This document shows positions 931-31,436 of a stretch of DNA of 64,000 bases, piece after piece. Position numbers and translations under genes: made by a program. Position 1 is the first letter of the stretch; the number at the start of each line of letters is the position of its first letter. Under the pieces are notes generated by a model. The model saw only the letters and a list, made by a program, of their open reading frames with translations, searched no databases and was not told the DNA's origin. Source of the stretch: Candidatus Eiseniibacteriota bacterium (lineage in GTDB: Bacteria > Eisenbacteria > RBG-16-71-46); assembly GCA_963707915.1 (NCBI GenBank), contig OY970178.1:3424001-3488000 (forward strand), read 5' to 3'.

Positions 931-2926
931 CGGGGCTCCGACGCGCGGAAGGAGAACGTGACGAAGAGACTGCGCGGGTCCTGGGCGATCAGGTCCTGCG
1001 GTGTCTCGACCCATCCCGGATCGCTGTACCGCGCGTCGAACAGGTTGCGAGCCTCGATCCCGACCGTGACGCCGCGCACGAGCCGTCGCGACACGCGCGC
1101 GTCGCACGAGAGGGTCGCGGTGGTGCGCAGGTCGTTCCCCGCGATCCGCGGCGAGAGGTAGCGCAGGCCCGCACCCAGGGCCGTCCGGCCGTCGCGCCCG
1201 GTGTGGAAGGCGAGCAGGTGCGCGTTCCAGCGCGGCGAGTTCGTGATCTCCGCGCCTGTGCGGCTGTCCTCGCTCCGCTGCCAGGCCACCGCCACCCGCG
1301 CGTGGGTCCCGGCCCCGGGGGTGACGCGCACGCCGGCCTCGAGACCGCGGCAGCGCACGCGCTGCTGGTTCCCGTAGTTCGACGCTCCGGACTCGTCCAA
1401 CTGCACGAGGTCGATGAGGTCCCGGATGCGGCTGGCGTAGGCGGTGAGGAAGGTCCGATGGGGCCCGATCTCGTGCTCGAGGGTCCCCTCGACGGTGAAG
1501 ATCCGCTCGGGAGTGAGCCGGCCGCCGGCCAGGGCGGGGCCCATGGCGTAGGACTCGGTCTCCCTGGCGAAGGGGCACGGAACGCGGAACCGCCCAGCAG
1601 CTTGAGCCGGGTGGCCGGCGCCATGGTCCACACCAGGTCGGCCCGCGGACTGACGACGGCCCGGTAGCGCGAGTCGTTGTCGAGACGCGCGCCCGCCGTG
1701 AGGATCAGCCGTCGGCCGAGGCGCGCCTCGTCCTGCAGGTAGAGGGCCAGTGCGCCCCCGGTGAGGCTCCGGTCGTAGTACAGCTCGTAGGGGGCGACGT
1801 CGTAGTTCAACAGGCGCCCGCTCACCATGCGCTGGGCTTCCAGGCCGAGCGTGAGCGTCTGCATGGTCGCGATCGACCAGATGGCACGGCCCTCGGCGCC
1901 CACCACGTCCGCGTTCCCGAAGTCCAGGTTCACGAGCGGCTCGGACCCCGGTTCGGAGAGGGAGACGAACCGGGCGCGGGTGCGCGACCCGTCCCAGTAG
2001 GCGCGGCCCGACAACTCGAGCGCGGGGGTCGTGCGCCGCGTGGCGGAGAGCTCGACGAAGTCGTGCCCGTCCCAGGCCGGGGAGGAGTTGTCGCTGACCG
2101 GCATCGTGTAGGAGGCGGGCATCTGGGCCTTCTGGCGCTCGTTGAACTTGACGACGAGCCGGACGGGTCCCCAGTCCGCGTCCCCGAAGAAGGCCAGGGC
2201 GCGCTCGTGGTCGCGGGCCACGGCCAGGCCGGGGTACTCGACGCCATCGATCGAAGCGGGCAGGGCGAGCTCGCGGCCCCGGGCCTCGAGCCACGAGACG
2301 CTCGCTCGCCACTCCGCGCGGCCCGGTCGTGCCGAGGCGATCGAGGCGTGCGTGCGCCACTCGTTGGCGCCGCCGGCGCGCACGTCCACCCGCGTGCCGG
2401 GATCGCTGCGGGGCTGGCGGGTCACGACGTTCACCACCGCCAGCACGGCGTAGCTGCCGTAGAGCGCCGAGCCCGGGCCGCGCGCGATCTCGATCCGCTC
2501 GACCTCCTCCATGTCGAGTCCCAGCTCGGGCCCGATCAGCGCGTCGCCGTAGACGCTGCCGTTCATCGTGTGGCCGTTGATGGTGAGCAGGAGCTTGTTG
2601 TTGAAGTCGCCCGGACGCTGCAGCCCCCGCACGCCGACGTTGGTGTAGGTCCGGTCGTAGGTGACGAACACCCCCCGGACCCAGCGCAGGGCGTCGCCGA
2701 GCGTCTGGTAGCCCATGGCACGGATCTCGGCGGCCGGGATCACCGTCACCGAGGAGGGCGTCTCCGAGAGCGGCAACGGACGCTTGCTGACCCCGGTGAC
2801 CATCTGCTCGCGCAGGAGGGAGAAGGCCGCGTCGTCGGGCTCTGCCGCCGAAGCGGGAACTCGTGACAGGGACGCGAGCAGCGCCCCGGCGAGGAGCGCC
2901 TGGAAGATGGTTCGTCTGTGGGACAC
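927..2926 (-). pseudogene. TonB-dependent receptor, frameshifted near 1567 (pseudogene or sequencing error)
   Basis: Plug motifs (TPSSVTVI, VERIEIARGPGSALYG) and FRAPS lie in the 989..3004 frame; the barrel end (RNLFDARY...RSLFVTFSFR) lies in the 927..3011 frame. GTG start with GGAGG RBS. Confidence 0.85.
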
Positions 2927-3264: not shown

Positions 3265-3279
3265 TGGCCCGGCCCTTGC
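3265..3279 (+). promoter_or_regulatory. Putative sigma54 (-24/-12) promoter of the flp/tad operon
   Basis: TGGCCC-GGCCC-TTGC, with GG-N10-GC spacing, about 160 bp upstream of flp. Confidence 0.6.
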
Positions 3280-13172: not shown

Positions 13173-16100
13173 ATGTTTCTGCACCGGCTCGAGATCCAGG
13201 GTTTCAAGTCGTTCGTCGACAAGACCGAGTTGCTGTTCGGCGAGGGCATGACCGGCGTCATCGGGCCCAACGGCTGCGGCAAGACCAACGTCTCGGACGC
13301 CATCCGCTGGGTGATGGGCGAGCAGAGCGCCAAGCAGCTGCGCGGCGACTCGATGGAAGACGTGATCTTCAACGGCTGCCCGTCGCGCAAGCCGCTCGGC
13401 ATGGCCGAGGTGCACCTCACCTTCAAGAACGACCGGGGCATCCTGCCGGTCGAGTTCTCCGAGGTCACGGTCTCCCGGCGCGTGTTCCGCTCGGGCGTGA
13501 GCGAGTACTCCCTCAACAAGGCCCCGTGCCGGCTCAAGGACATCCGCGACCTGTTCTCCGACACCGGCATGGGCAGCCACGCCTACTCGGTGATCGAGCG
13601 CGCCATGGTGGACCACGTGCTGTCGGACAGTTCGGGGCATCGCCGCTTCCTGTTCGAGGAGGCCTCCGGCATCACCAAGTACAAGGCGCGCAAGAAGGAG
13701 GCGCTCAACAAGCTCGACGCCACCGAGACCGACCTGGTGCGGCTCAACGACATCGTCTTCGAGCTCGAGCGCGAGCTGCGCTCGCTCGCCCGCCAGGTGG
13801 GCAAGGCCCGGCGCTTCCAGCGCTGGCGCGACGAGATCCGCGACCTCGACCTGACGCTCACCGCGGGCCACGTCGAGGCCCTGAAGCGGAAGGAGGCCGA
13901 GGCGAAGGAGCAGTGGGAGGAGGAGTCGGTGAGGCGCGTGGGCGTGACCACCGCCCTCGACGGGCTCGAGGCCACGCTCAACGACCGCAAGCTCGTCCTG
14001 CTCGAGCTCGAGCGCGAGCTCTCGACCTCGCAGGGCGGCCTGCGCGACCGCGAGGAGGCGCGCACGCAGGCCGAGCACCAGGTCGTGCTGTTGCGCGAGC
14101 GGGGGTCGGGGCTGCGCGGCCGGGCCGACGAGGCGGTGACCGAGGCGCGCGCCCTGCGCGAGCGGCTCGACGAGGTGATCGCCCGCGAGGCCGAGGCCGC
14201 CGCGCACCTGGCGGCCCTGCGCACCGAGCGCGACGCGGCGCAGGCGGCGGTCGAGTCCAGCCGGCAGGCGCTGGGTGCGGTCGAGACCGAGCTGCGCGAG
14301 CGGCGCGAGGTCGCCAGCCAGCGCAAGCAGTTGTCGCTCGACCTGTTCTCCACCGAGGCCGACAAGCGCGGCACGCTCGAGAACCTGCGCGCCCGGCGGC
14401 TGTCGCTCACCGAGCGGCGGGACGCGGCGGCGGCGCGGTGCGACGAGCTCGAGGCGCGGGTGGCCGAGTTGGCCCGGCTGGCGGCCGAGCGCAGCGCCAC
14501 GCGCACCGGGCTCGAGGCCGAGCGGGAGGCGGCGCGCACCGCGCTGGCGGCGGTGGACGAGCAGATCCGCGCGGTCGCGGCCGGCCTCGAGGAGGCCGGG
14601 GCCCGGCTGGCGGACCTGCGACAGCAGTCGGCCGCGGCCGAGTCGCGGCTCGAGACGCTGCTGGACCTCAAGCGGAACTTCGACGGCGTCTCGGAGGGTG
14701 TGAAGGCCCTGCTGACCGGGGACCGCCGCTCGGCCGGCACGCTGGGCATGATCTCCGACGTGCTCGAGGTGCCGGCGCGCTACCTCGACGCGCTCGAGGC
14801 CTCGCTGGGCGAAGCGGCCGCCTTCGTGCTGGTCGCCGACCACGCCGCGCTCGACGCGGCGCTCGGTCACCTGCGCGGGCTGGAGAGCGGGCGGGCCACG
14901 CTGGTGGACCTGGCGGGCATCAGCCCCGGGACGCTGCACGACGTGCCGGTGGGTGAGGGCGTGGTGGGCCGGGCCTCGGACCTGGTGCGCTGCGAGGAGC
15001 GCTTCCGCGCGCTGGTCGAGCGCCTGCTCGGCGCGGTCGTGGTGGTCGAGGACCGCGCCAGCGCGGCGCGGCTGGCCGGGCATTCCGAGGCGGGGCTGCG
15101 CTTCGTGAGCCTGGACGGCGAGGTCTGGGAACGCGGGCGGGTGCGTGCCGGGTCGGCGCGCAACCTGAGCGGGCTGCTGCACCGCGAGAACGAGATCCGC
15201 GAGCTGACCGGCGAGCTGGCCGAGCGCCGGCTCGCGCTCGAGGCGCTGGAGCACGAGCGCGGCGCGCTGGAGGCGGGCCGCCAGGAGACGCTGGTCCGGC
15301 GCGAGGCGGCGGCGGCCGCGCTCGAGCAGGCCCGCACGGCGCTCGAGGCGCTGGAGCGCGAGCTCGAGGCCGGCGAGCGGGAGAGCCGCTGGGCCGGCGG
15401 CGAGGCCGGCGAGCGCCGCCGCGAGATCGAGCTGCACGAGGCCGAGCGGGACACGCTCGAGCGGGCCCTGGCCGAGGCCGAGGCCGACCTGGCCGACTAC
15501 CAGCTGCAGGTCGAGAGCGCGCGGGCGCAGCTCGCGGACCTCGACGGGACGCTGCGCGGGCTCGAGACCCGCCGCGAGGAGGCGGCCTCCGCCGCGCGCG
15601 CCGCGGGGGAGCGGCTGCTGCAGCTGGCGCGCGACCAGGGGGAGTGGGAGAGCCAGTGGGCACGCGCCGAGCAGACCCGGCGCGAGCTGGAGGCCGGCAT
15701 CGAGGCGCGCGAGCGCGAGGACCGCGAGGCGCGCGCGAAGGTGGCCGAGATCGAGGCCGAGGTCGCCGGGCTGGCGGCCGGGCTGACCGGGCTGCTGGAG
15801 TCGGAGTCCACCCAGCGCGAGCGCGTGGTCGAGCTGCAGAAGCGCTTCGCGGCCCGGAAGCAGGAGGTGCAGGCCGGCGAGGAGGATGCCCGCCAGCTGC
15901 GCTTCCAGCAGGCCGAGCTGAGCGAACTGATGCACCAGGTCGAGCTGGACCGGGTGCAGACCCACGCCGAGCTGGAGCGCACCTTCGAGCGCCTGCACAC
16001 CGAGTACGACCTGGAGGTGGCCGCCTGGGAGCCGGCGCCGCCGCCCGAGGGCTTCGATGCCGACGACGGCCGCCGCCGGCTCGAGGAGATGCGCGCGCGC

Positions 16101-21748: not shown

Positions 21749-21887
21749 TATGTGCTACTCGTCCAGAGGTCCTTGATCGCGAGCACGGAGAAGCACGTAC
21801 GTCGCGGGGCGGCTGATTCGGCCGCCGTAGCACGTGGGCCGTCTTCGATGCTCGACAGGTCAGGGACCTTCCTCGGAGGCCGCGCAC

Positions 21888-24800
21888 ATGTCCCACCGTT
21901 TCCTGCCTGCCCTGGCAGGCATGCTGGTCTTTGCTGCCCTCGTCCCCTCTACTGCCTCCGCCGGCAACAACGCCGGCGGTCGGGCGTTCCTCAGCTGGGA
22001 CCGCGCAGGTATGGATTCCGTGCTCACCGAGGTTCCAGTGGCGCCCTTCCCTCTGTTCCTGAACCTGCGCGACGCTCCCGACGTGCACGCGCTTGCGGCG
22101 CGGATCATCTGGACCACGAACACCGAGGGCGCCCCGCCGTGCTACATGCTCGTTTCGGCGAGCGCGCCCGACGCGGCTCCGGCCCCAGACAGCCTGGGTG
22201 GTTGGGCCTTTGACTCGCGTCCCGGCCAGGACTTCAACGGTGACACGACCTACACCTGGACCATAGCCTTCGACGCCAACGACAGTTCGAAGGACCGCAT
22301 CGAGTACCGGGTCAGCGGAGCATCGTGCGCCGACACGGCGCACGCCGAGTTCCTGGCGGCGAGGGTGATGGTGATGGATGCCCTCGGCCGCATCGACACA
22401 CTGATTGTGACTGGGGGAGTCCGGATCGCACCACGGATCATCGACCTTGCGGTTGAGCAGGTCTCACCGAGGCGGGTCCCCGTGCGGCAGGCCACGGACC
22501 TCTCGATCATCGGTCGTGGCTTCGAGCCGGGCTCGCGCGTCTTCCTGCAACGTGGCGGCCAGCGCATCGAGGCGAGCCACGTGGTCGTGTCGGATCTGAC
22601 CGAACTCATGGCGCGGGTAGTGTCGCCCTTCTCCGGCGATGATTCGCTCGACCTGGTCGTCGAGCACCCGGTGGGCGTGGAAGCGAGCTTGCCTTCGAGC
22701 CTGCGGTCGACCGGCGCCGAACAGGACTCCTTCTATCGCCCCACGAATGACGACTTCGCGTTCACGCAGATCCCGCTGCGCGCGACGACAAGGGAGCAGA
22801 ATGAGTACCTGCAGGATCCGGTTACGCATCTCGAGTGGCCCGGTTGGCTGGACGGACCGAAACTGCGGGTAATCCGTGCGCCGGGTGATACCGTCGCGAT
22901 CATGCTGAGCCAGCCTTACAACGGAATCGGGCTACAGTCGAACCACTACGAGGCCTCATCATGGGTCCGCCTGCACCTGGACCCACCCCGGCTGGCGACG
23001 TCACTCGCAACGCTCGTCACGTCGGGAAAGACGTTCAAGCACGAGTCGGTGGACTTCCAGGACGGCGGCAAGCCGATCCTGCGCGTGCAGGTCAACTACG
23101 TGGACGGGGACTCGCACGTCACGCAGCTCGTCATCGGGACCAATGTGCGGAACTGGATATCGGGGCAGATGTTCTGCGGCGGTCAAGTGCGTCCTTTCTA
23201 CGACACGCCCCCCGCCGACCCGCTCGGGTCCTGTGCCCAGATCTACTCCGGTCCCGGTCAGACGGGCAGTCCGCCGCCGACAGTCCACTATGACCTGCAG
23301 GAAATCCCGCTCCCGGCATCGAAACGTGCCAAGCGCATCGAGTCGGTCGAGTTCCTAGCTGAGCCGGTCTACCATGTCTGCGGCAACTACTACGATGGCA
23401 CTAGCGGGATCTTCGGACTCGCGGTATGGCCTGAGTTCAAGGCCACTGACGCCGAAGGCGACACGGTCTCGCGACTGAGCCAGAACACGAACCAATCCCA
23501 CGGCGGCTACCTGTTCGGTAGCGAGGCGGTCGGGACGAGACGAACGACAGACGACACGGCGTGCCAAGTCGCCTCGGCGGCGATGAACTACTCGTTCCTC
23601 GGGGTGCCCTGCGCAGTGGACAGCTTGAACAACTTTCTGAGGCGCAGCCGCGGCTACTTCCCTGAGGACGTCGCCTTCGTCTCCAGGGTCTCGACCTCGG
23701 GCGACACGATCGAATTCAGAGGACCCGCTCTGGCCGACAGAATCAACTGGAAGCAGGACCATACCTTCCTCGTCGAGCGCGGAAGGTACGTCCACCCGAT
23801 CGCCACCTTCAGGATCTTGCCCGGAGAGCCCCGCCGGGCCGTTGTTGAAACGCGGCACGATCTCTCCTCCGCGGTCGCGGTCGGAGACACGGGACGGGTC
23901 TACTGGAGCATGAATCCCACAAGGGCCGATCGCTTCACACGGGACGCGAGCGGCCAGCCTCGCCTGCGCACGGTTGAGATCCCCGGTTCCCCAAGTCTCG
24001 CGGCGAAAGTGGAGAGCCTGCTGGTGCGTGGTATCCCGGTTCAGGTGAACACGCATGGGCACATGGTCGTGGCCGATGGCTGGGTGCCTTCGTTCCGCCC
24101 GGATACAACGGCTCGCGGTACCTATGCGATCCAGGATCCACTCGATCGCAGGAACTACCGGCGGCTGATCCAAGGGAAGTACCGGAACGAGTTCAAGCTA
24201 GCGCGCTACGTTGTCGCGGTCGGGGGTGGCCCGGGTCCGAACGCCCTCGCCGGGCTGAACGAGGCGGGAGACGAGCATGGCCTATCGATCGTCGTGGGCC
24301 ATGCAAGCAACGTGACGATCACGGACCCGATGGGTAGGAGCATCGCTCGCGACCCGGGGACAGGCCTCTACTCGAGCAGCATCCCGGACGCGTGGGTGAT
24401 CGATGACATCGTCGCCGATCACGATGTGGATGACGGGCTCGATGGCCCGCCGGTGATGCATCAGTTTCACCTGCCCGCTGCCGTCGATGGCCACTACACC
24501 GTCCGCGTTGATTCCGACGGCGGCATGGCCGTCTCCGTGGCCGCATTCGACACCGGTGGCGTTGTTGCCGCCACGGCTGCAATGGACACATCGCAGGCGC
24601 CGAGTGGGAACAGCTACGATGTGACGTACTCGGCCGCCACGTCATCGGTCGCGATCGCATGGCTCGGGCCAATCGCGGTGGAGGTCCGTTCCCCGGTGGA
24701 GCCTCGGTTCCGGGTGCTGCGCAACCCGACCAGCGGTCCCGTTCAGTTCGAGATTCGATCTGCCGAAGACACAGAGGCGGACCATCTCGAAGTATTCGAC

Positions 24801-24962
24801 CTTTGCGGCAGGCGAGTGGCCGCGCTCGACATCGGATCAGCGAGCCTGCGCGGCAGCGTCGTCACCTGGGACTGGCGAGGCGCTGGATGCCGCGCGGGGG
24901 TCTACTTCGCACTCCAGCGGTCCCGCGCCCGCGGCGTCGTGCGGTTTGTTGTACTGCGATAG
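21888..24962 (+). CDS. Large secreted multidomain protein: Ig/IPT-like domain, C39-like papain-fold peptidase, beta domain, C-terminal FlgD/T9SS-like sorting domain
   Basis: Signal peptide; TACQVASAAM (Cys, ~23562), GHMVVADG (His, ~24060), YAIQDP (Asp); C-terminal NPTSG...EVFDLCGRRVA...WDWRG...AGVYF...RFVVLR. Codon usage is less GC3-biased than the host. Confidence 0.75.
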   Translation: MSHRFLPALAGMLVFAALVPSTASAGNNAGGRAFLSWDRAGMDSVLTEVPVAPFPLFLNLRDAPDVHALAARIIWTTNTEGAPPCYMLVSASAPDAAPAPDSLGGWAFDSRPGQDFNGDTTYTWTIAFDANDSSKDRIEYRVSGASCADTAHAEFLAARVMVMDALGRIDTLIVTGGVRIAPRIIDLAVEQVSPRRVPVRQATDLSIIGRGFEPGSRVFLQRGGQRIEASHVVVSDLTELMARVVSPFSGDDSLDLVVEHPVGVEASLPSSLRSTGAEQDSFYRPTNDDFAFTQIPLRATTREQNEYLQDPVTHLEWPGWLDGPKLRVIRAPGDTVAIMLSQPYNGIGLQSNHYEASSWVRLHLDPPRLATSLATLVTSGKTFKHESVDFQDGGKPILRVQVNYVDGDSHVTQLVIGTNVRNWISGQMFCGGQVRPFYDTPPADPLGSCAQIYSGPGQTGSPPPTVHYDLQEIPLPASKRAKRIESVEFLAEPVYHVCGNYYDGTSGIFGLAVWPEFKATDAEGDTVSRLSQNTNQSHGGYLFGSEAVGTRRTTDDTACQVASAAMNYSFLGVPCAVDSLNNFLRRSRGYFPEDVAFVSRVSTSGDTIEFRGPALADRINWKQDHTFLVERGRYVHPIATFRILPGEPRRAVVETRHDLSSAVAVGDTGRVYWSMNPTRADRFTRDASGQPRLRTVEIPGSPSLAAKVESLLVRGIPVQVNTHGHMVVADGWVPSFRPDTTARGTYAIQDPLDRRNYRRLIQGKYRNEFKLARYVVAVGGGPGPNALAGLNEAGDEHGLSIVVGHASNVTITDPMGRSIARDPGTGLYSSSIPDAWVIDDIVADHDVDDGLDGPPVMHQFHLPAAVDGHYTVRVDSDGGMAVSVAAFDTGGVVAATAAMDTSQAPSGNSYDVTYSAATSSVAIAWLGPIAVEVRSPVEPRFRVLRNPTSGPVQFEIRSAEDTEADHLEVFDLCGRRVAALDIGSASLRGSVVTWDWRGAGCRAGVYFALQRSRARGVVRFVVLR

Positions 24963-24981
24963 AGGGAGACGGAGGGCGACT

Positions 24982-25632
24982 ATGGGGAAGGGTTGTTGGG
25001 TACCGCTCTTGGTGCTGTTCTGGGCGCTGCTCGGTGGGTGTGCGGCGTCCAGCCCGCAAGCCCTCCGACCGTATTCGGTGCTCTCGGAGGTCAGGATCGA
25101 TGTCTGGGGAGGGGACACGCACCACGTAGGAGTCGTACTCGTGGACAGGACGGGCAGACGCTGTGGATGGGAGGCTGGCGCGGTTCTCCAGGACCTGTTC
25201 TGGGATTGCACGTACGACAACGCGGAGCCGGGCATCCCAGATGAGTTTCCACCCATGGACGACACGATTGGGACGTTGAGGTCGCTGGCCTGGGACGACT
25301 CTGCAACCACGGGTGAGTCGGGGTTGATGGCCTCCGAACAGCCGCCGATATCTAGCAGTTTCGTCATTGCGGCGCATGAGAATGGCACCGGCTTACTCAC
25401 CGCGGGCAAGTGTGAGCTGTGGGTTGTTCCGATCCAGACAGGCCCGGTGACCTTTCAGATTCGCGCCAAGCGCGGCTCGCCGCAACACTGTGGTAGCGCC
25501 GAATTCGTGGATTCGCTGCAATCTGGATTCCGCTACCGCTACTGCGCCGCGTGGAAGTCAACGGCCGACAGTTGCAGTGTCCGGATCAGCCTGGCGGCGC
25601 GTGAGAAGGTCGGGGAGAACTCCAAGAAGTAG
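24982..25632 (+). CDS. Hypothetical lipoprotein
   Basis: Lipobox LLGG|C; GGAGGG RBS; Cys-rich; VVLVDRTGRRCG motif. Confidence 0.75.
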   Translation: MGKGCWVPLLVLFWALLGGCAASSPQALRPYSVLSEVRIDVWGGDTHHVGVVLVDRTGRRCGWEAGAVLQDLFWDCTYDNAEPGIPDEFPPMDDTIGTLRSLAWDDSATTGESGLMASEQPPISSSFVIAAHENGTGLLTAGKCELWVVPIQTGPVTFQIRAKRGSPQHCGSAEFVDSLQSGFRYRYCAAWKSTADSCSVRISLAAREKVGENSKK

Positions 25633-25713
25633 CACTACAGTCCGGACAAGCTCCGTGCCTCGTGCGCCCGGTACTGCAACGCCTCCGCCAACGCGCGCAC
25701 GCTGATTGATCCG

Positions 25714-26595
25714 CTACCCGCCACTGGAGCAGCCGGGCACGCTCAAAGCGAGTTCCTCGGGCGCCTCGGCTCCTTCGACCTCGGCACGATACTCCGCCGG
25801 GGTCCGCTGCCCCAAGCTCCCGTGGGGCCGTCGGTTGTTGTACTCCTCCCGCCAGGCGTCGAGCGACACCCGGGCGTCGATGACAGACAGAAAGTAGTGT
25901 TGCGATAAGCACTCACGCCTCAGCTGGGCGTTGAAGCTCTCGATGAAGGGGTTGTCGGTCGGCTTGCCCGGACGGCTGAAGTCCAGCCGCACGTGATTGA
26001 CGTAGGCCCAGTGGTCGAACGCCTTCGAGGTGAACTCCGTCCCGTTGTCCACGTGAATCACCGCCGGCAACCCGCGCCGTACACCTTCGCGCGTCAGCAC
26101 CCGGGCGACCTCGGCGCCGCCGAATGAGCCGCTGACCTCGAGGGCCACGCACTCGCGGGTGAACGTGTCGAGCACCGTCAGCACCCGCAGCTTCCGGCCA
26201 TCCGCCAGCGCATCGCTCACGAAGTCCATCGCCCAGAGCTGGTTGGTCCCGGTGGCCGTGAGTGTCTCTTGCCGGCGCACCGCACTGCGGCGCCGCTTGG
26301 GCCGTTTCGACCGCAGACAGAGCCCTTCTTCCCGATATAGCCGGTACGTCCGCTTGGCGTTCACCTTCCAGCCTTCCCGACGCAGCAACACCTGCACGCG
26401 GCGATACCCGTAGCTCACCCGGGTCGTCGCGATCTCCTTGATCCTCTGGCGCAGCGGGGTCTGATCCGGCCGGACCGGGCGGTACAGCATCGAGGACATT
26501 GCCGTTCCCGAGGCGCGGCAGGCCTTGCGCAAGCTCACGCGGTAGGCCTCCTGCATCCAGCGGGTCACGGCGCGGCGCTCGACCGGCCTTACCAC
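25714..26595 (-). CDS. IS3 transposase OrfB (DDE)
   Basis: YGYRR, WAMDF, DNGTEF, PGKPTDNPFIESFN. Confidence 0.95.
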   Translation of the reverse strand: MVRPVERRAVTRWMQEAYRVSLRKACRASGTAMSSMLYRPVRPDQTPLRQRIKEIATTRVSYGYRRVQVLLRREGWKVNAKRTYRLYREEGLCLRSKRPKRRRSAVRRQETLTATGTNQLWAMDFVSDALADGRKLRVLTVLDTFTRECVALEVSGSFGGAEVARVLTREGVRRGLPAVIHVDNGTEFTSKAFDHWAYVNHVRLDFSRPGKPTDNPFIESFNAQLRRECLSQHYFLSVIDARVSLDAWREEYNNRRPHGSLGQRTPAEYRAEVEGAEAPEELALSVPGCSSGG

Positions 26596-26855
26596 TTTTT
26601 TCGGAGCGCCTCCTGCAGCATCGTCCGGTCCAGCGTCAGGTCCGCGACGACGGCCTTGAGGCGTCGGTTCTCGTCCCGCAGCTGCCGCAGCTCCCGCAGC
26701 TCCGGTGAGGAGATCCCACCGAACTTCTTCTTCCAGCGGTAGAACGTGGTCTCGGTGATGCCCAGCTCCCGGCAGACCTCCCCGACCACCACCCCGCCCT
26801 CGACCCGCTTCAGGGCCTGGGCAATCTGCTCGACCGTGAACTTGCTGGTCTTCAT
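26589..26855 (-). CDS. IS3 transposase OrfA (HTH)
   Basis: VCRELGITETTFYRWKKKF; A6G frameshift motif at its end. Confidence 0.95.
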   Translation of the reverse strand: MKTSKFTVEQIAQALKRVEGGVVVGEVCRELGITETTFYRWKKKFGGISSPELRELRQLRDENRRLKAVVADLTLDRTMLQEALRKKW

Positions 26856-27335
26856 CCTGGGTCCTCCTCCTTGCGGTTCAGGAGGCCCCGAGGTTAGCTC
26901 ATTGCGACAGTCCCGCTGCTCCAGGAAACGGGGAGCGGATCATGATGCACTCACCGCCCGCGAGGTCGGCGATCGTGCGCGCCACGCGCATGGCGCGATG
27001 CACAGCGCGCGCGCTCATGCCCCCACGGTCCACGGCGTCGGCGACGAGCCGTCGCCCGGCCTGATCCAGCGCGCAGCACTCATCGAGCCGCGACGGCGGC
27101 AGCAGCGCGTTCAGGCAGCCGCGCTCGCGCTGACGCGCCCGCGCCGCGAGCACACGCGCCCGAACCACGGCGCTCGACTCGCCCGCCGACGCCGCCTGCA
27201 GCTCGCGCGAGGTGAGCGCCGGCACCTCGACCTGCAGGTCGAGCCGGTCCAGCACCGGCCCGCTCACCCGGGCGTGGTAGTGCGCGATGTCGGTCGGCGT
27301 GCAGCGACAGCCGCGTTTCGGGTGCCCGAGCCACC

Positions 27336-27353
27336 CGCAACGGCACCGTTGCG
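27336..27353. other. Putative att/crossover site (8-bp inverted repeat around CA)
   Basis: cgcaacgg-CA-ccgttgcg, exactly where homology to comM stops; the partner CA is at 30220-30221. Confidence 0.7.
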
Positions 27354-27794
27354 TTGCCTTTCTGCAACCTCCGCCTCCGTGGGCGCCGACCGCGAGTAAT
27401 CCCAAGGGGTTATCCGCAGGAGCCTCGGACGCTTGGTCAGCAGATCCGCCGGCGGAGGATAGACCTGGGGCTGACGCAACGAACCCTCGCTGAGCGGCTG
27501 GGCTGCTGCTTGGAGACGGTGGCGGGATGGGAGCAGGACGAGAGCGTGCCCCTGGCCCGGCGCTGGCCGGCGATCGAATCCGCCCTCGGCCCCGGGCTCG
27601 TTCCGGAACGGGACGGCCTCCCGGGGCGGGTCCTGGCCGCCCGGCTCCGGCTGGGGCTCACGCAGGAGGCCTTGGCGAAGCTCGCGGGCGTGGACCTCAG
27701 GACTGTTCGCAACGTGGAGCGGGGCGTCGGGATTCCCCGTCCTTGCACCTTGGCGGGGATGGCCGCCGCCCTCGAAGTGGACCTCCGTGCCTGA
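27354..27794 (+). CDS. Tandem XRE-family helix-turn-helix protein
   Basis: TLGQQIRRRRIDLGLTQRTLAERLG...WE and RVLAARLRLGLTQEALAKLAGVD...VERG; TTG start uncertain. Confidence 0.82.
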   Translation: MPFCNLRLRGRRPRVIPRGYPQEPRTLGQQIRRRRIDLGLTQRTLAERLGCCLETVAGWEQDESVPLARRWPAIESALGPGLVPERDGLPGRVLAARLRLGLTQEALAKLAGVDLRTVRNVERGVGIPRPCTLAGMAAALEVDLRA

Positions 27795-27945
27795 GACCGG
27801 GTTCGCCCACACCCATGGCTGGGGAGGATGTGGCGGGCGCCCTGCCATTCGATATCGGTGATCCGCTCCCCGTTTCCTGGAGCAGCGGGACTGTCGCAAT
27901 GAGCTAACCTCGGGGCCTCCTGAACCGCAAGGAGGAGGACCCAGG

Positions 27946-28212
27946 ATGAAGACCAGCAAGTTCACGGTCGAGCAGATTGCCCAGGCCCTGAAGCGGGTCG
28001 AGGGCGGGGTGGTGGTCGGGGAGGTCTGCCGGGAGCTGGGCATCACCGAGACCACGTTCTACCGCTGGAAGAAGAAGTTCGGTGGGATCTCCTCACCGGA
28101 GCTGCGGGAGCTGCGGCAGCTGCGGGACGAGAACCGACGCCTCAAGGCCGTCGTCGCGGACCTGACGCTGGACCGGACGATGCTGCAGGAGGCGCTCCGA
28201 AAAAAGTGGTAA
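27946..28212 (+). CDS. IS3 transposase OrfA
   Basis: Identical protein to 26589..26855. Confidence 0.95.
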   Translation: MKTSKFTVEQIAQALKRVEGGVVVGEVCRELGITETTFYRWKKKFGGISSPELRELRQLRDENRRLKAVVADLTLDRTMLQEALRKKW

Positions 28213-29087
28213 GGCCGGTCGAGCGCCGCGCCGTGACCCGCTGGATGCACGAGGCCTACCGCGTCAGCTTGCGCAAGGCCTGCCGCGCCTCGGGAACGGC
28301 AATGTCCTCGATGCTGTACCGCCCGGTCCGGCCGGATCAGACCCCGCTGCGCCAGAGGATCAAGGAGATCGCGACGACCCGGGTGAGCTACGGGTATCGC
28401 CGCGTGCAGGTGTTGCTGCGTCGGGAAGGCTGGAAGGTGAACGCCAAGCGGACGTACCGGCTATATCGGGAAGAAGGGCTCTGTCTGCGGTCGAAACGGC
28501 CCAAGCGGCGCCGCAGTGCGGTGCGCCGGCAAGAGACACTCACGGCCACCGGGACCAACCAGCTCTGGGCGATGGACTTCGTGAGCGATGCGCTGGCGGA
28601 TGGCCGGAAGCTGCGGGTGCTGACGGTGCTCGACACGTTCACCCGCGAGTGCGTGGCCCTCGAGGTCAGCGGCTCATTCGGCGGCGCCGAGGTCGCCCGG
28701 GTGCTGACGCGCGAAGGTGTACGGCGCGGGTTGCCGGCGGTGATTCACGTGGACAACGGGACGGAGTTCACCTCGAAGGCGTTCGACCACTGGGCCTACG
28801 TCAATCACGTGCGGCTGGACTTCAGCCGTCCGGGCAAGCCGACCGACAACCCCTTCATCGAGAGCTTCAACGCCCAGCTGAGGCGTGAGTGCTTATCGCA
28901 ACACTACTTTCTGTCTGTCATCGACGCCCGGGTGTCGCTCGACGCCTGGCGGGAGGAGTACAACAACCGACGGCCCCACGGGAGCTTGGGGCAGCGGACC
29001 CCGGCGGAGTATCGTGCCGAGGTCGAAGGAGCCGAGGCGCCCGAGGAACTCGCTTTGAGCGTGCCCGGCTGCTCCAGTGGCGGGTAG
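28206..29087 (+). CDS. IS3 transposase OrfB
   Basis: Differs from copy 1 by one Q/H substitution. Confidence 0.95.
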   Translation: MVRPVERRAVTRWMHEAYRVSLRKACRASGTAMSSMLYRPVRPDQTPLRQRIKEIATTRVSYGYRRVQVLLRREGWKVNAKRTYRLYREEGLCLRSKRPKRRRSAVRRQETLTATGTNQLWAMDFVSDALADGRKLRVLTVLDTFTRECVALEVSGSFGGAEVARVLTREGVRRGLPAVIHVDNGTEFTSKAFDHWAYVNHVRLDFSRPGKPTDNPFIESFNAQLRRECLSQHYFLSVIDARVSLDAWREEYNNRRPHGSLGQRTPAEYRAEVEGAEAPEELALSVPGCSSGG

Positions 29088-29094
29088 CGGATCA

Positions 29095-29209
29095 CCCGCA
29101 GCGGCTGGCCTCTTGATCTGTACCAGCGTTGGGGGCTACGTCAATCAGGCTGGCAACGGAGAACGTCGCGATCACGCGGCGCGTGGTCGTGCTTGGCGGG
29201 AGGCACTGA
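29095..29209 (+). pseudogene. 3' remnant of a gene ending in a FlgD/T9SS-like sorting tail
   Basis: ...IRLATENVAITRRVVVLGGRH*, whose TGA (29207-29209) overlaps the next ATG. Confidence 0.5.
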
Positions 29210-29730
29210 TGAGGCTTCTCGGCGTTATGGCGATTGTGGTTGCGGGGTGCGCCCTGGTGGGCTCGAGCACGGCGGGTTCGGCAGGGAAGCGGAGCACTGC
29301 AACTGACCGGCTCTACATCGTCGTGCATGGTGGCGCGCACGTGGTCCTCACCGACGCGAGGGGGAGGACGTCAGGTGACTGTGATACCACGGGAGTCCGC
29401 ATCCCCGCTTGCGAGTATAGAACGGACGTGGCGTTGTTTGCTCCTCGTGCGACGGAGAAGCGAATGGTCATGTTCATCCTCGGGCCTCCTTCCCCTGGGC
29501 GTTACCGGCTCGGTGCTGAGGTAGCGGACAGCGGTGGGGTCTTCGTCGAGTGTGCGTGGCAGAGTGCAGGGGGTGGCGGGACGTCGGCTGGCGGTCTCCC
29601 TGCTGAAATCGGTACGCACGGTGTCTGGAGCATCCAGTGGGTCCAGGGCAGTCATGGGAAGCCCTCCACGCTGCAGTCGCGACGGATTGAGCCCCCGGAC
29701 ACCTCCGGGGCGACGTCGCCTAGGCGCTGA
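29209..29730 (+). CDS. Small secreted or lipoprotein-like hypothetical protein
   Basis: MRLLGVMAIVVAGC signal; HVVLTDARGRTSG motif; GGGAGG RBS. Confidence 0.72.
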   Translation: MRLLGVMAIVVAGCALVGSSTAGSAGKRSTATDRLYIVVHGGAHVVLTDARGRTSGDCDTTGVRIPACEYRTDVALFAPRATEKRMVMFILGPPSPGRYRLGAEVADSGGVFVECAWQSAGGGGTSAGGLPAEIGTHGVWSIQWVQGSHGKPSTLQSRRIEPPDTSGATSPRR

Positions 29731-29732
29731 CT

Positions 29733-31262
29733 TCACGACGTCCTTCCCGGATGAGTGCCGGCTATGAGTCTCCCCTCGTACGCCCGGTACTGCAACGCCT
29801 CTGCCAGCGCGCGCACGATGATGCGCTCCTCGCCTGCCAGGTCCGCGATGGTCCGCGCCACGCGCATGGCGCGGTGCACGGCGCGTGCGCTCATGCCGCC
29901 GCGGTCCACGGCATCGGCGACGAGCCGTCGTCCGGCCTGATCCAGCGCGCAGCACTCATCGAGCCGCGACGGCGGCAGCAGCGCGTTCAGGCAGCCGCGC
30001 TCGCGCTGACGCGCCCGCGCCGCGAGCACCCGTGCCCGCACCGTCGCGCTCGACTCGCCCGATGTTGCCGCCTGCAGCTCGAGCGCCGTCAGCGCTGGCA
30101 CCTCGATCTGTATATCAATCCTGTCCAACACCGGCCCGCTCACCCGCGCGTGGTGCTGTGCGATCTCGGTCGGCGTGCACCGACAGCCCCGTCGCGGATG
30201 CCCGAGCCAACCGCAGCGGCAGGGGTTCATCGCCGCGACCAGCAGGACGCTCGCCGGGAACTCGCTGGCGCCGCTGGCGCGCACGATGGTGACCGTGCCG
30301 TTCTCGAGCGGCTGGCGCAGCGCGTCCAGCAGTCCGCGCGCGAACTCGGAGAGTTCGTCGAGGAACAGCACGCCGTGGTGGGCGAGCGAGATCTCGCCGG
30401 GGCGCGGCGGCGAGCCGCCACCCACCAGCCCGGCGGAGGAGACCGTGTGGTGCGGGGCGCGGTAGGGGCGGCGGGTCATCAGCCCGCGCCCGGGGCGGCG
30501 CAGCCCGGCGGCCGAGTGCAGTCGCGTGACCACCAGCGCCTCCTCGGGCTCGAGCGGCGGGAGGATGCCGGGCAGCCGTCTCGCGAGCATGGACTTGCCG
30601 GCGCCGGGCGGGCCGACGTAGAGCAGGTGGTGTCCGCCCGCGGCGGCGATCTCGAGTGCGCGGCGCGCCACCGCCTGGCCGCGCACGTCGCAGAGATCCT
30701 CGCTCCTCGCGGGCTCCGGATCGGGCGGCGCCGGGGCCTGGCAGGGCCGCTCCGCTCCGCGCAGCCAGTCGATCGCCTCCTGCAGGGTGTCCACGGCGTG
30801 CACGGCCAGCCCTTCGACGAGGGCGGCCTCCGGGGCGCAGCCGGAGGCGCACAGCAGGGTCGTCACGCCCGCGCGCCACAGCGCCTCGGCCAGTGGCAGG
30901 GTGCCGCGCACGCCGCGCAGGCGGCCGTCGAGTGCCAGTTCGCCCAGCGCGGCCGCGCCGTCGAGCCGCTCACGCGGGGCCTGCCCGGTGGCGACCAGCA
31001 CGCCCACGGCGACGGCGAGGTCGGTCGACGAGCCCTCCTTGCGGCGCTCGGCGGGGGCGAGGTTCACGGTGACCTTGCGGTCGGGCAACTGGAAGCCGGC
31101 GTTGCGCAGCGCGGGCCAGACCCGGTCGCGCGCCTCGCGGCCGGTGGCGTCGGGCAGGCCCACGAGGACGAAGCCGGGCAGGCCGGGCCCGACGTCCACC
31201 TCGCACTCGACCGGGAGCGCCTCCAGCCCCCACAGGGCGGCGGTCCGCACGCGGCTCAGCAT
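29733..31262 (-). CDS. comM: ComM/YifB Mg-chelatase-family AAA+ ATPase
   Basis: VGLPD, VNLAPA, GPPGAGKSMLA, PGEISLAHHGVLFLDE, AAMNPCRCG, ARTIADL. Confidence 0.96.
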   Translation of the reverse strand: MLSRVRTAALWGLEALPVECEVDVGPGLPGFVLVGLPDATGREARDRVWPALRNAGFQLPDRKVTVNLAPAERRKEGSSTDLAVAVGVLVATGQAPRERLDGAAALGELALDGRLRGVRGTLPLAEALWRAGVTTLLCASGCAPEAALVEGLAVHAVDTLQEAIDWLRGAERPCQAPAPPDPEPARSEDLCDVRGQAVARRALEIAAAGGHHLLYVGPPGAGKSMLARRLPGILPPLEPEEALVVTRLHSAAGLRRPGRGLMTRRPYRAPHHTVSSAGLVGGGSPPRPGEISLAHHGVLFLDELSEFARGLLDALRQPLENGTVTIVRASGASEFPASVLLVAAMNPCRCGWLGHPRRGCRCTPTEIAQHHARVSGPVLDRIDIQIEVPALTALELQAATSGESSATVRARVLAARARQRERGCLNALLPPSRLDECCALDQAGRRLVADAVDRGGMSARAVHRAMRVARTIADLAGEERIIVRALAEALQYRAYEGRLIAGTHPGRTS

Positions 31263-31436
31263 GGGAATGGCTCCGCGGGGGCGGGCGGTAGGGGGACGCT
31301 CGCAGCTATGCAAACGGCGGGCCCGTTCGAGCCTGCGCCGCACCCCGCGTCGGCGGGCGGTGCTGCCCGCCTTCGTCCGCCCCGCCCGTCCGCCGGCCCG
31401 CGGACGTCCGGGGCGGATCTGCGCCCTGCTGCGGGC

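Follow-up and report, generated by a model that had tools for sequence, protein, structure and literature searches.

A probable large serine recombinase attachment site within comM in the Eisenbacteria, and a recombinase gene that appears to be split by integration

Introduction

The natural-transformation helicase gene comM is a favoured landing site for mobile DNA. Insertion at a conserved gene is well known from the SCC and pseudo-SCC islands at rlmH (orfX) of staphylococci, which are moved by the Ccr large serine recombinases. These units lie in tandem at the 3' part of the gene and leave it intact, many of them are recombinase-less and presumed to be mobilised in trans, their repeats measure about 15–20 bp, and the Ccr genes are not split by integration. 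The comM units described here, which we know from sequence alone, resemble SCC units in lying in tandem, in keeping the gene whole and in having no recombinase of their own, but they carry about 470 bp of the gene end, and the large serine recombinase (LSR) gene of their family appears to be split by integration.

According to Durrant et al. (2022, PMC10083194), 12.4% of predicted site-specific LSRs target Mg-chelatase/ATP-dependent-protease homologs, and LSR targets are enriched in competence genes. The sr1WO recombinases of phage WO integrate in the Mg-chelatase gene of Wolbachia, and the sr1WO prophage has HTH_XRE genes at the end away from the recombinase (PMC9203015). The statement of an earlier note on the present DNA, that some LSRs target comM, is thus in print in these two reports, and an LSR attachment (att) site in comM is for that reason of a known kind. 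As described in those reports, the Mg-chelatase elements share with ours an LSR, a target in comM/Mg-chelatase coding sequence and gene parts that flank the element; XRE-type HTH genes opposite the recombinase end are a further likeness to phage WO, the comparison being one of gene content. Unlike the elements described there, ours have the HTH in frame with the LSR across attP, and most copies are LSR-less units with a replacement comM 3' end.

The ssrA islands of Dehalococcoides, which use the serine integrase DsiB, lie in tandem, each bounded by a gene 3'-end repeat; a serine recombinase of about 540 aa sits beside the att site with its open reading frame (ORF) overlapping the repeat, and the authors suggest that its gene is perhaps fully functional only on the circle (PMC3146451). 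The comM system is like these islands in its tandem arrangement bounded by gene-end repeats and in the integrase ORF that overlaps the site. It is unlike them in that their target is ssrA, their repeat is 20 bp and 16 islands keep the integration module, and the portions of that report that describe the islands mention no HTH tail. The 'suicidal' tyrosine integrases of SSV type, found in archaeal viruses and plasmids, also have attP inside the ORF and a gene that integration splits in two; according to the relevant portions of these sources, they belong to the tyrosine class and their catalytic protein is disrupted (PMC7253208, PMC8371274). Unlike these, the comM LSR loses no more than a C-terminal HTH extension and retains an intact catalytic body and DNA-binding domains. 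Our literature search found no paper describing a serine recombinase whose ORF continues across attP and into an HTH domain, and none on LSR-less cassettes carrying a replacement comM end; in the portions of papers that it covered, split integrase genes turned up only for archaeal tyrosine enzymes.

Here we analyze a stretch of 64,000 nucleotides (the window) from a Candidatus Eiseniibacteriota genome (contig OY970178.1 of GCA_963707915.1, positions 3,424,001 to 3,488,000), together with related genomes of the same family, referred to below as G followed by a number.

Results and discussion

A displaced comM 3' end and its junction

The window carries a full-length comM gene (29733..31343, minus strand) encoding a 536-aa Mg chelatase-like AAA ATPase of the YifB family, with the Pfam domains Mg_chelatase, ChlI and Mg_chelatase_C and a score of 520.9 bits against TIGR00368 (cut-off 362.4). 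The 3' end of this gene (copy A, 29733..30221, minus strand) is borne by an inserted unit and completes the full-length gene. A second, displaced 3' fragment (copy B, minus strand) starts at codon C371 and occupies 27345 down to 26943; it does not stop at 26942, and resumes past an IS3-family element at 25658..25706, where it is 91.8% identical to 29774–29822. BLASTN aligned 26942–27345 with 29818–30221 at 87.6% identity over 404 bp, an offset of 2876. The match stops at a CA dinucleotide (27344..27345 and 30220..30221), beyond which 7 of 19 columns agree. The two copies are 95–98% identical in a central block and 80–87% toward the junction side, and each is about 80–81% identical to comM genes of the same genus, neither being closer.

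At 27344..27345, the CA (TG on the comM sense strand), which the end of homology marks as the probable crossover dinucleotide, is the center of a perfect 8-bp inverted repeat, cgcaacgg-CA-ccgttgcg (27336..27353, no strand assigned), as the earlier note had stated along with the offset; both the alignment and the sequence bear this out. Left of the CA lies the comM 3' side (the B' half-site), and right of it an element arm, ccgtt-GCGTTGCC, which reaches 27358. Directly beyond the repeat, an ORF with two HTH_3 domains by Pfam (27354..27794, plus strand) has its apparent start, a TTG at 27354, within the arm GCGTTGCC; in its frame, A 27345 is codon position 1. Perfect palindromes of the 8-2-8 type number 11 in the window against a mean of 4.8 in first-order Markov simulations, and the genome has 7.75 per 64 kb, so that the palindrome alone is of a common kind and not beyond chance. 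The site exceeds chance because the palindrome coincides with the homology boundary and the junction recurs in other genomes. There, the site is mostly an imperfect repeat whose conserved part is the element arm, GGCAACGC-N5, beside the dinucleotide, and the comM side is constrained by coding for C-x-C-G-W.

The two ends of homology had been read as attL and attR. The junction at 27344 is indeed of attR type, but 30220 is no classical attL, because comM 5' is joined there to the unit-borne comM 3' end: the same dinucleotide lies inside intact comM (N-P|C-R-C-G, 30220..30221, no strand assigned), and the site looks like a regenerated attB.

Downstream of copy B lies older, low-G+C cargo (21834..25632, plus strand) that encodes a 1042-aa secreted protein and a lipoprotein; this older set, copy B included, ends at conserved archease and RadC genes. 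The G+C content falls from about 0.75 to about 0.65 across 21.5–29.7 kb. To the left of the older cargo and its 1042-aa gene, we found no tail or att arm and no third comM fragment. A paralogous stretch at C1:1618423–1618646 in the same genome is 74% identical to the start region of the 1042-aa gene (21834–24962). The product of this gene matched no Pfam or NCBIfam model, and the proteins at the same position in relatives carry FlgD_ig ends.

Recurrence of the junction at a fixed dinucleotide

A comM 3' protein query gave at least two matches per genome in 12 of 41 genomes (the window's own and 40 relatives). Relatives of the HTH ORF occur in 25 of 89 family genomes and 13 of 28 genera; among 35 matches, 27 have no internal stop codon. 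A search of genome contigs with the HTH protein gave generic XRE matches only, all of them in unrelated phyla.

The arm, GCGTTGCC-N5-CA, stands before the HTH ORF and is joined to the comM 3' codons C-x-C-G-W in 17 of 30 loci, drawn from many genera of the one family, with the ORF abutting comM codon C371. A script recovered 14 of these junctions, and three more that it mis-picked (L027, L044, L049) were read by eye. In the other 13 loci the ORF lacks a comM 3' junction; one is joined to comM 5', six to other DNA through the same CA, four are degenerate or offset, and two have no arm within the locus. Viewed from the comM side, 19 loci plus the window hold 30 C-x-C-G-W sites, nine of them in intact comM, 15 after the tail arm (GGCAACGC-N5), two after the 3' end of an LSR gene and four after short comM-like arms. 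All 30, including the 21 interrupted ones, begin at the same TG, and the breakpoint is therefore fixed. The earlier note had asked whether HTH homologs are preceded by the same comM-derived junction, and had held that breakpoints scattered in other genomes would speak against its reading; the 17 loci answer the first point in the affirmative, and the common TG settles the second in favor of a fixed site.

At the four short-arm sites (L016 at 9048, L056 at 7942, L057 at 16061 and L068 at 3184), comM 3' fragments follow 10–13 nt that resemble the comM 5' arm (for instance gggcaatgaatccg), with unrelated DNA beyond; these may be arms of another element type at the same site. In L067 (G010:C148, 2950–2977) and L056 (G101:C63, 10845–10872), tail arms are joined via TG to non-comM DNA that resembles a half-site, aggat-GCGTCGCC and aggat-TCATTGCC, the one in G010 beside a high-G+C, core-like gene. 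Both joints are candidate secondary or pseudo-attachment sites.

Recombinase genes at the same dinucleotide

In five relatives (G046, G047, G080, G022 and G005), LSR genes with Resolvase and Recombinase domains end 20–30 nt from the dinucleotide, their orientation varying with the reading of the site as TG or CA. These genes support the assignment of the junction to a serine recombinase, made in the earlier note from the inverted repeat. In G046 (L064), a gene for a 533-aa Resolvase+Recombinase protein leads into GGCAACGC-aacct-TG and a comM 3' fragment. The LSRs of G047, G080 and G022 are orthologs of the G046 protein (67–71% identical) and are followed by the arm, CA and reverse-complemented comM 5'; G022 and G080 have the matching tail/comM-3' junction on another contig. 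G005, from the window's genus, encodes a 574-aa LSR (Resolvase, Recombinase and zinc-ribbon) directly before TG and a comM 3' fragment, and this protein is only about 23% identical to that of G046.

The G046 tail is joined to comM 5' through TG (...atgaacccg-TG-ggcca-GCGTTGCC), the mirror image of the other junctions. Combining the two arms of this element gives a symmetric attP, GGCAACGC-aacct-TG-ggcca-GCGTTGCC. The tail arm and the LSR arm both read GGCAACGC-N5 toward the dinucleotide, as inverted half-sites; the dinucleotide is common to all partner sites, and the 5 nt on each side vary between loci. A near-perfect GGCAACGC-N5-TG-N5-GCGTCGCC occurs in G010:C148, and 8 of 13 positions are shared by the element arm and the comM 5' arm, GGCGATGAACCCC. 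The attP predicted earlier, a joint of comM 3' with the HTH gene, was not borne out: the attP of the family consists instead of LSR arm, dinucleotide and HTH arm, as read in G046 and in the metagenome protein P0002 (below), and the comM-3'/HTH joint would serve as the site on a circle of the LSR-less unit, if such a circle exists.

For phiC31 and Bxb1, the central dinucleotide alone sets the polarity of insertion. The one TG-type element here (G046) lies opposite to the three CA-type elements (G047, G080 and G022), orientations that, by analogy, fit a polarity set by the dinucleotide.

An HTH tail apparently cut off from the recombinase gene

The HTH ORF of the window is, on the sequence comparisons that follow, most simply read as an orphan tail, the C-terminal part of an LSR gene that was split. 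Fusions were sought as longer proteins that contain the HTH ORF, and two metagenome proteins, P0001 and P0002, were obtained. P0002 (461 aa, N-terminus cut) aligns over residues 1–299 with the G046 LSR (64% over 301 columns) and over residues 322–457 with the HTH ORF of the window (65% over 136 columns), and between these parts it encodes an arm, the dinucleotide and a second arm, that is, an intact attP. P0001 (263 aa, on a 1.3-kb contig) shows the same continuity from LSR to HTH. In integrated elements, flanking DNA supplies the last 22–156 nt of the LSR ORFs, beyond the dinucleotide. The codon phase at the dinucleotide is the same for LSR body and tail in all three genomes that hold both, its first base being codon position 3 in G046 and G080 and position 1 in G022.

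The fused ORFs and the phase match thus indicate that the free element would encode an LSR with a tandem-HTH tail. The attP lies inside the recombinase ORF, and integration separates the two gene parts, so that the inserted element would have a tail-less LSR gene and an orphan tail at its two ends. A fusion protein, and a role for its tail, are presumed. An LSR ORF that continues across its own attP into an HTH region would be a simple physical means of switching the enzyme between its free and inserted forms.

Units that lack a recombinase

In relatives, short units of 5–7 kb consist of the tail, one or two large secreted-protein genes, often a lipoprotein gene, and a comM 3' end. Some of the secreted proteins have FlgD_ig and glycosyl-hydrolase-like domains. 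Next to comM 5', such a unit makes the gene complete and restores the target sequence. The site is therefore used in two ways, full elements splitting the gene and short units repairing it with an end of their own. In G022, for instance, a full element splits the gene, and one contig has the comM 5' part beside the LSR while another has the 3' part beside the tail. Stacking is evident in G071, where three tail/comM-3' units stand in a row before the full gene, in the window, which has two comM 3' copies, and in G046, where an LSR element occupies the restored site in front of an older unit and carries defence cargo (a ThsB-like TIR protein, a DNA methylase and a HATPase).

The claim that no integrase lies between the junctions held: there is no LSR in the unit of the window, nor in any of the relatives' short units. 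The single serine recombinase of the window's genome (C1:3353628–3355187) belongs to a different island at a distance of 96 kb; its identity to the comM-site family is about 22%, and neither of its ends shows a GGCAACGC arm. The large serine recombinase that was to be looked for genome-wide is thus present, but it belongs to another family than the comM-site LSRs, and the unit is therefore most likely immobile now. A strict palindrome scan of the same genome gave nothing convincing, and a genome-wide scan for the 8-mer arm is uninformative because the motif is common at 72% G+C. Among public sequencing runs, the best word share was 0.22; four runs covered mainly the IS and conserved comM parts, from other organisms.

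Searched against the 88 other family genomes, the window's cargo DNA had no near-identical counterpart, the best match being 66% over 1.2 kb, and G004, which has the same archease/RadC flank, has cargo that is only 24–38% identical. We also considered whether the cargo could be a native neighbor of comM and rejected this, as genomes with an uninterrupted comM and no tail hold no cargo homologs downstream. G004 also shows, in L015 (G004:C4, 13227–16979), a second comM 5' piece (aa 18–81, 80% identical) about 4 kb upstream of the full gene, with a secreted-protein-like gene between the two; this looks like another insertion with duplication near the comM start.

IS elements and erosion of the unit in the window

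Two copies of an IS3-family element, 99.8% identical and inverted relative to each other, flank copy B and the tail. Copy 1 (25707..26942, minus strand) is a simple insertion into copy B with a 4-bp duplication, TGAT. Copy 2 (27859..29094, plus strand) stands without a target duplication at the scar of a deletion within the unit: its flanks do not belong together, and it abuts a 49-bp stub (29095..29143, plus strand) whose sequence is that of the right end of a second IS type, present elsewhere in the genome in two full copies, so that DNA was lost beside it. An IS-adjacent deletion has cut the unit to 2.9 kb. To the earlier alternative of a non-autonomous or a deleted element, the answer is that the unit is both, since the relatives' 5–7 kb units are likewise without an LSR and the window shows a deletion. 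An inversion between the two IS copies was considered and rejected, the duplication at copy 1 being intact and comM continuing across it.

Between the stub and comM lies a lipoprotein-like gene (29209..29730, plus strand), convergent with comM, which matches no Pfam or NCBIfam family and is 31% identical to the gene at the same position in G005:C171. A third copy of the IS in the same genome (C1:451222–452500) directly precedes a repeat of the last ~45 bases of the IS, an arrangement of a copy inserted into, or beside, the end of another. For annotation, the yield of the window is that the 'HTH regulator' is, on this reading, a gene fragment and the second comM piece a displaced gene end; the locus is a decayed insertion hotspot and its copy a decayed, probably immobile member of the family.

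A proposed course of events and its alternatives

We propose that crossover takes place at the comM dinucleotide between the codons for N-P and C-R-C-G. The free, autonomous element would have one long ORF composed of the LSR body, attP (GGCAACGC-N5-NN-N5-GCGTTGCC) and the tandem-HTH tail; integration at the comM TG would cut this ORF, placing LSR body and HTH tail at opposite ends of the element, in an orientation that would follow the polarity of the central dinucleotide. The window would keep the tail-side junction (tail arm, TG, copy B) and, upstream of it, an eroded LSR-less unit that ends in its own comM 3' copy. Because that copy completes comM and regenerates the target, units and elements could pile up in tandem. 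To this account as a whole, with 27344–27345 as an LSR crossover in comM, a split LSR-HTH gene and an eroded unit in the window, we assign a probability of roughly 0.8. The junction, its recurrence, the adjacency of LSR genes, the continuous fused ORFs and the IS damage can be read directly; catalysis by the LSR, expression of the fusion, and the origin and movement of the LSR-less units are the parts that we infer.

Two routes of movement can be envisaged for the units, an LSR acting in trans at the tail-arm/comM-3' site, or homologous recombination via the comM 3' repeat of about 470 bp. Homologous recombination alone (by a Campbell-type single crossover, by unequal sister exchange or through transformation) might account for both the movement and the multiplication of the units, the LSR junction being the passenger scar of one old insertion; we take this possibility seriously but hold it at somewhat less than an even chance. 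The central block of copies A and B is far closer than its flanks, comM 3' copies mostly cluster by genome (with 99–100% support in G021, G059, G076, G098 and G071), and the full gene and the fragment share the variable residue x of C-x-C-G in seven of the eight genomes that hold both (the window's, G004, G021, G059, G071, G076 and G098, the exception being G010). The first two of these patterns show homologous recombination or gene conversion and fit a route other than the LSR. Moreover, the cognate LSR is absent from the window's genome, and the unit site would be a P-arm/B'-arm hybrid, that is, attR-like, and for phiC31 and Bxb1 the integrase alone is not known to recombine such a hybrid with attB. 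Set against these points are foreign comM 3' fragments, that of G010 at 3266 falling within the clade of the window's genus and that of G046 at 15592 with G057, as well as the tail ORFs that stay open in 27 of 35 matches and the single architecture of all units (tail, one or two secreted-protein genes, comM 3'); a uniform plan, mostly intact tails and foreign fragments would favor mobilisation by an LSR in trans. An LSR event is in any case still needed for the first junction.

More tentatively still, and in our view unlikely, the tail arm and HTH tail could form a cis-acting handle of a gene-capture platform at comM on which cassettes accumulate as in an integron. LSR-HTH enzymes from free elements would then insert LSR-less cassettes that bring their own comM 3' end and carry, here, secreted-protein and lipoprotein genes; each insertion would regenerate the target, and the loss of the HTH tail at integration would also serve as a directionality switch between free and inserted state.

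Two further explanations concern the junction itself, and we consider both very improbable. Inverted repeats around a short spacer and a duplicated gene 3' end are also typical of tyrosine-integrase islands, and the present site, with both features, could be that of a tyrosine recombinase (Xer-like or an integrase) whose inverted repeats are arms around a 6–8 bp overlap. Identity between partner sites is, however, limited to the dinucleotide, the flanking 5 nt being variable; serine recombinase genes sit on the junction in five genomes, while a PF00589 search of five genomes found no tyrosine recombinase within about 60 kb of mapped comM/tail loci; and both orientations occur, with TG or CA, as expected if the dinucleotide sets polarity. 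Scarcely credible, and the least probable of all, is a chance segmental duplication of the comM 3' end by the flanking IS copies with a coincidental palindrome. Two inverted IS copies do flank the fragment and the HTH ORF, and such palindromes are common, but copy 1 is a simple insertion with target duplication inside a pre-existing fragment, the comM copies are 12–16% diverged, and loci free of these IS elements show the same junction.

Variant sites and recombinase layouts

The natural pair of TG/CA orientations and the half-sites of the family could be of use in designing recombinase tools, and relatives hold further variants of both site and layout. In L081 (G097:C205, about 2068–2113) and L083 (G014:C178, about 1115–1160, reverse strand), orthologs of the comM-site LSR (63–69% identical) are followed by an arm, GCAACGC-N5, then by GG instead of CA/TG, and then by GCATGGCC, which starts a different ORF (MATSL...). 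Judging by these sequences, the two may represent a sub-lineage with another central dinucleotide, and therefore with another target.

L075 (G005:C171, 3987–4652), from the window's genus, has a tail junction (CA) and, about 155 bp on, a divergent serine recombinase gene that is cut by sequence encoding the end of an IstB-like (IS21 helper) protein; this is another arrangement of att site and recombinase in that genus. Finally, G046 has a second LSR gene that is apparently split between the end of L071 (G046:C3) and L051 (G046:C20, 1–226). If this gene is real, the comM insertion of about 38 kb in G046 holds two LSR genes and may consist of nested or adjacent elements, one of which resembles the island around the LSR of the window's own genome (a RuvC-like gene).
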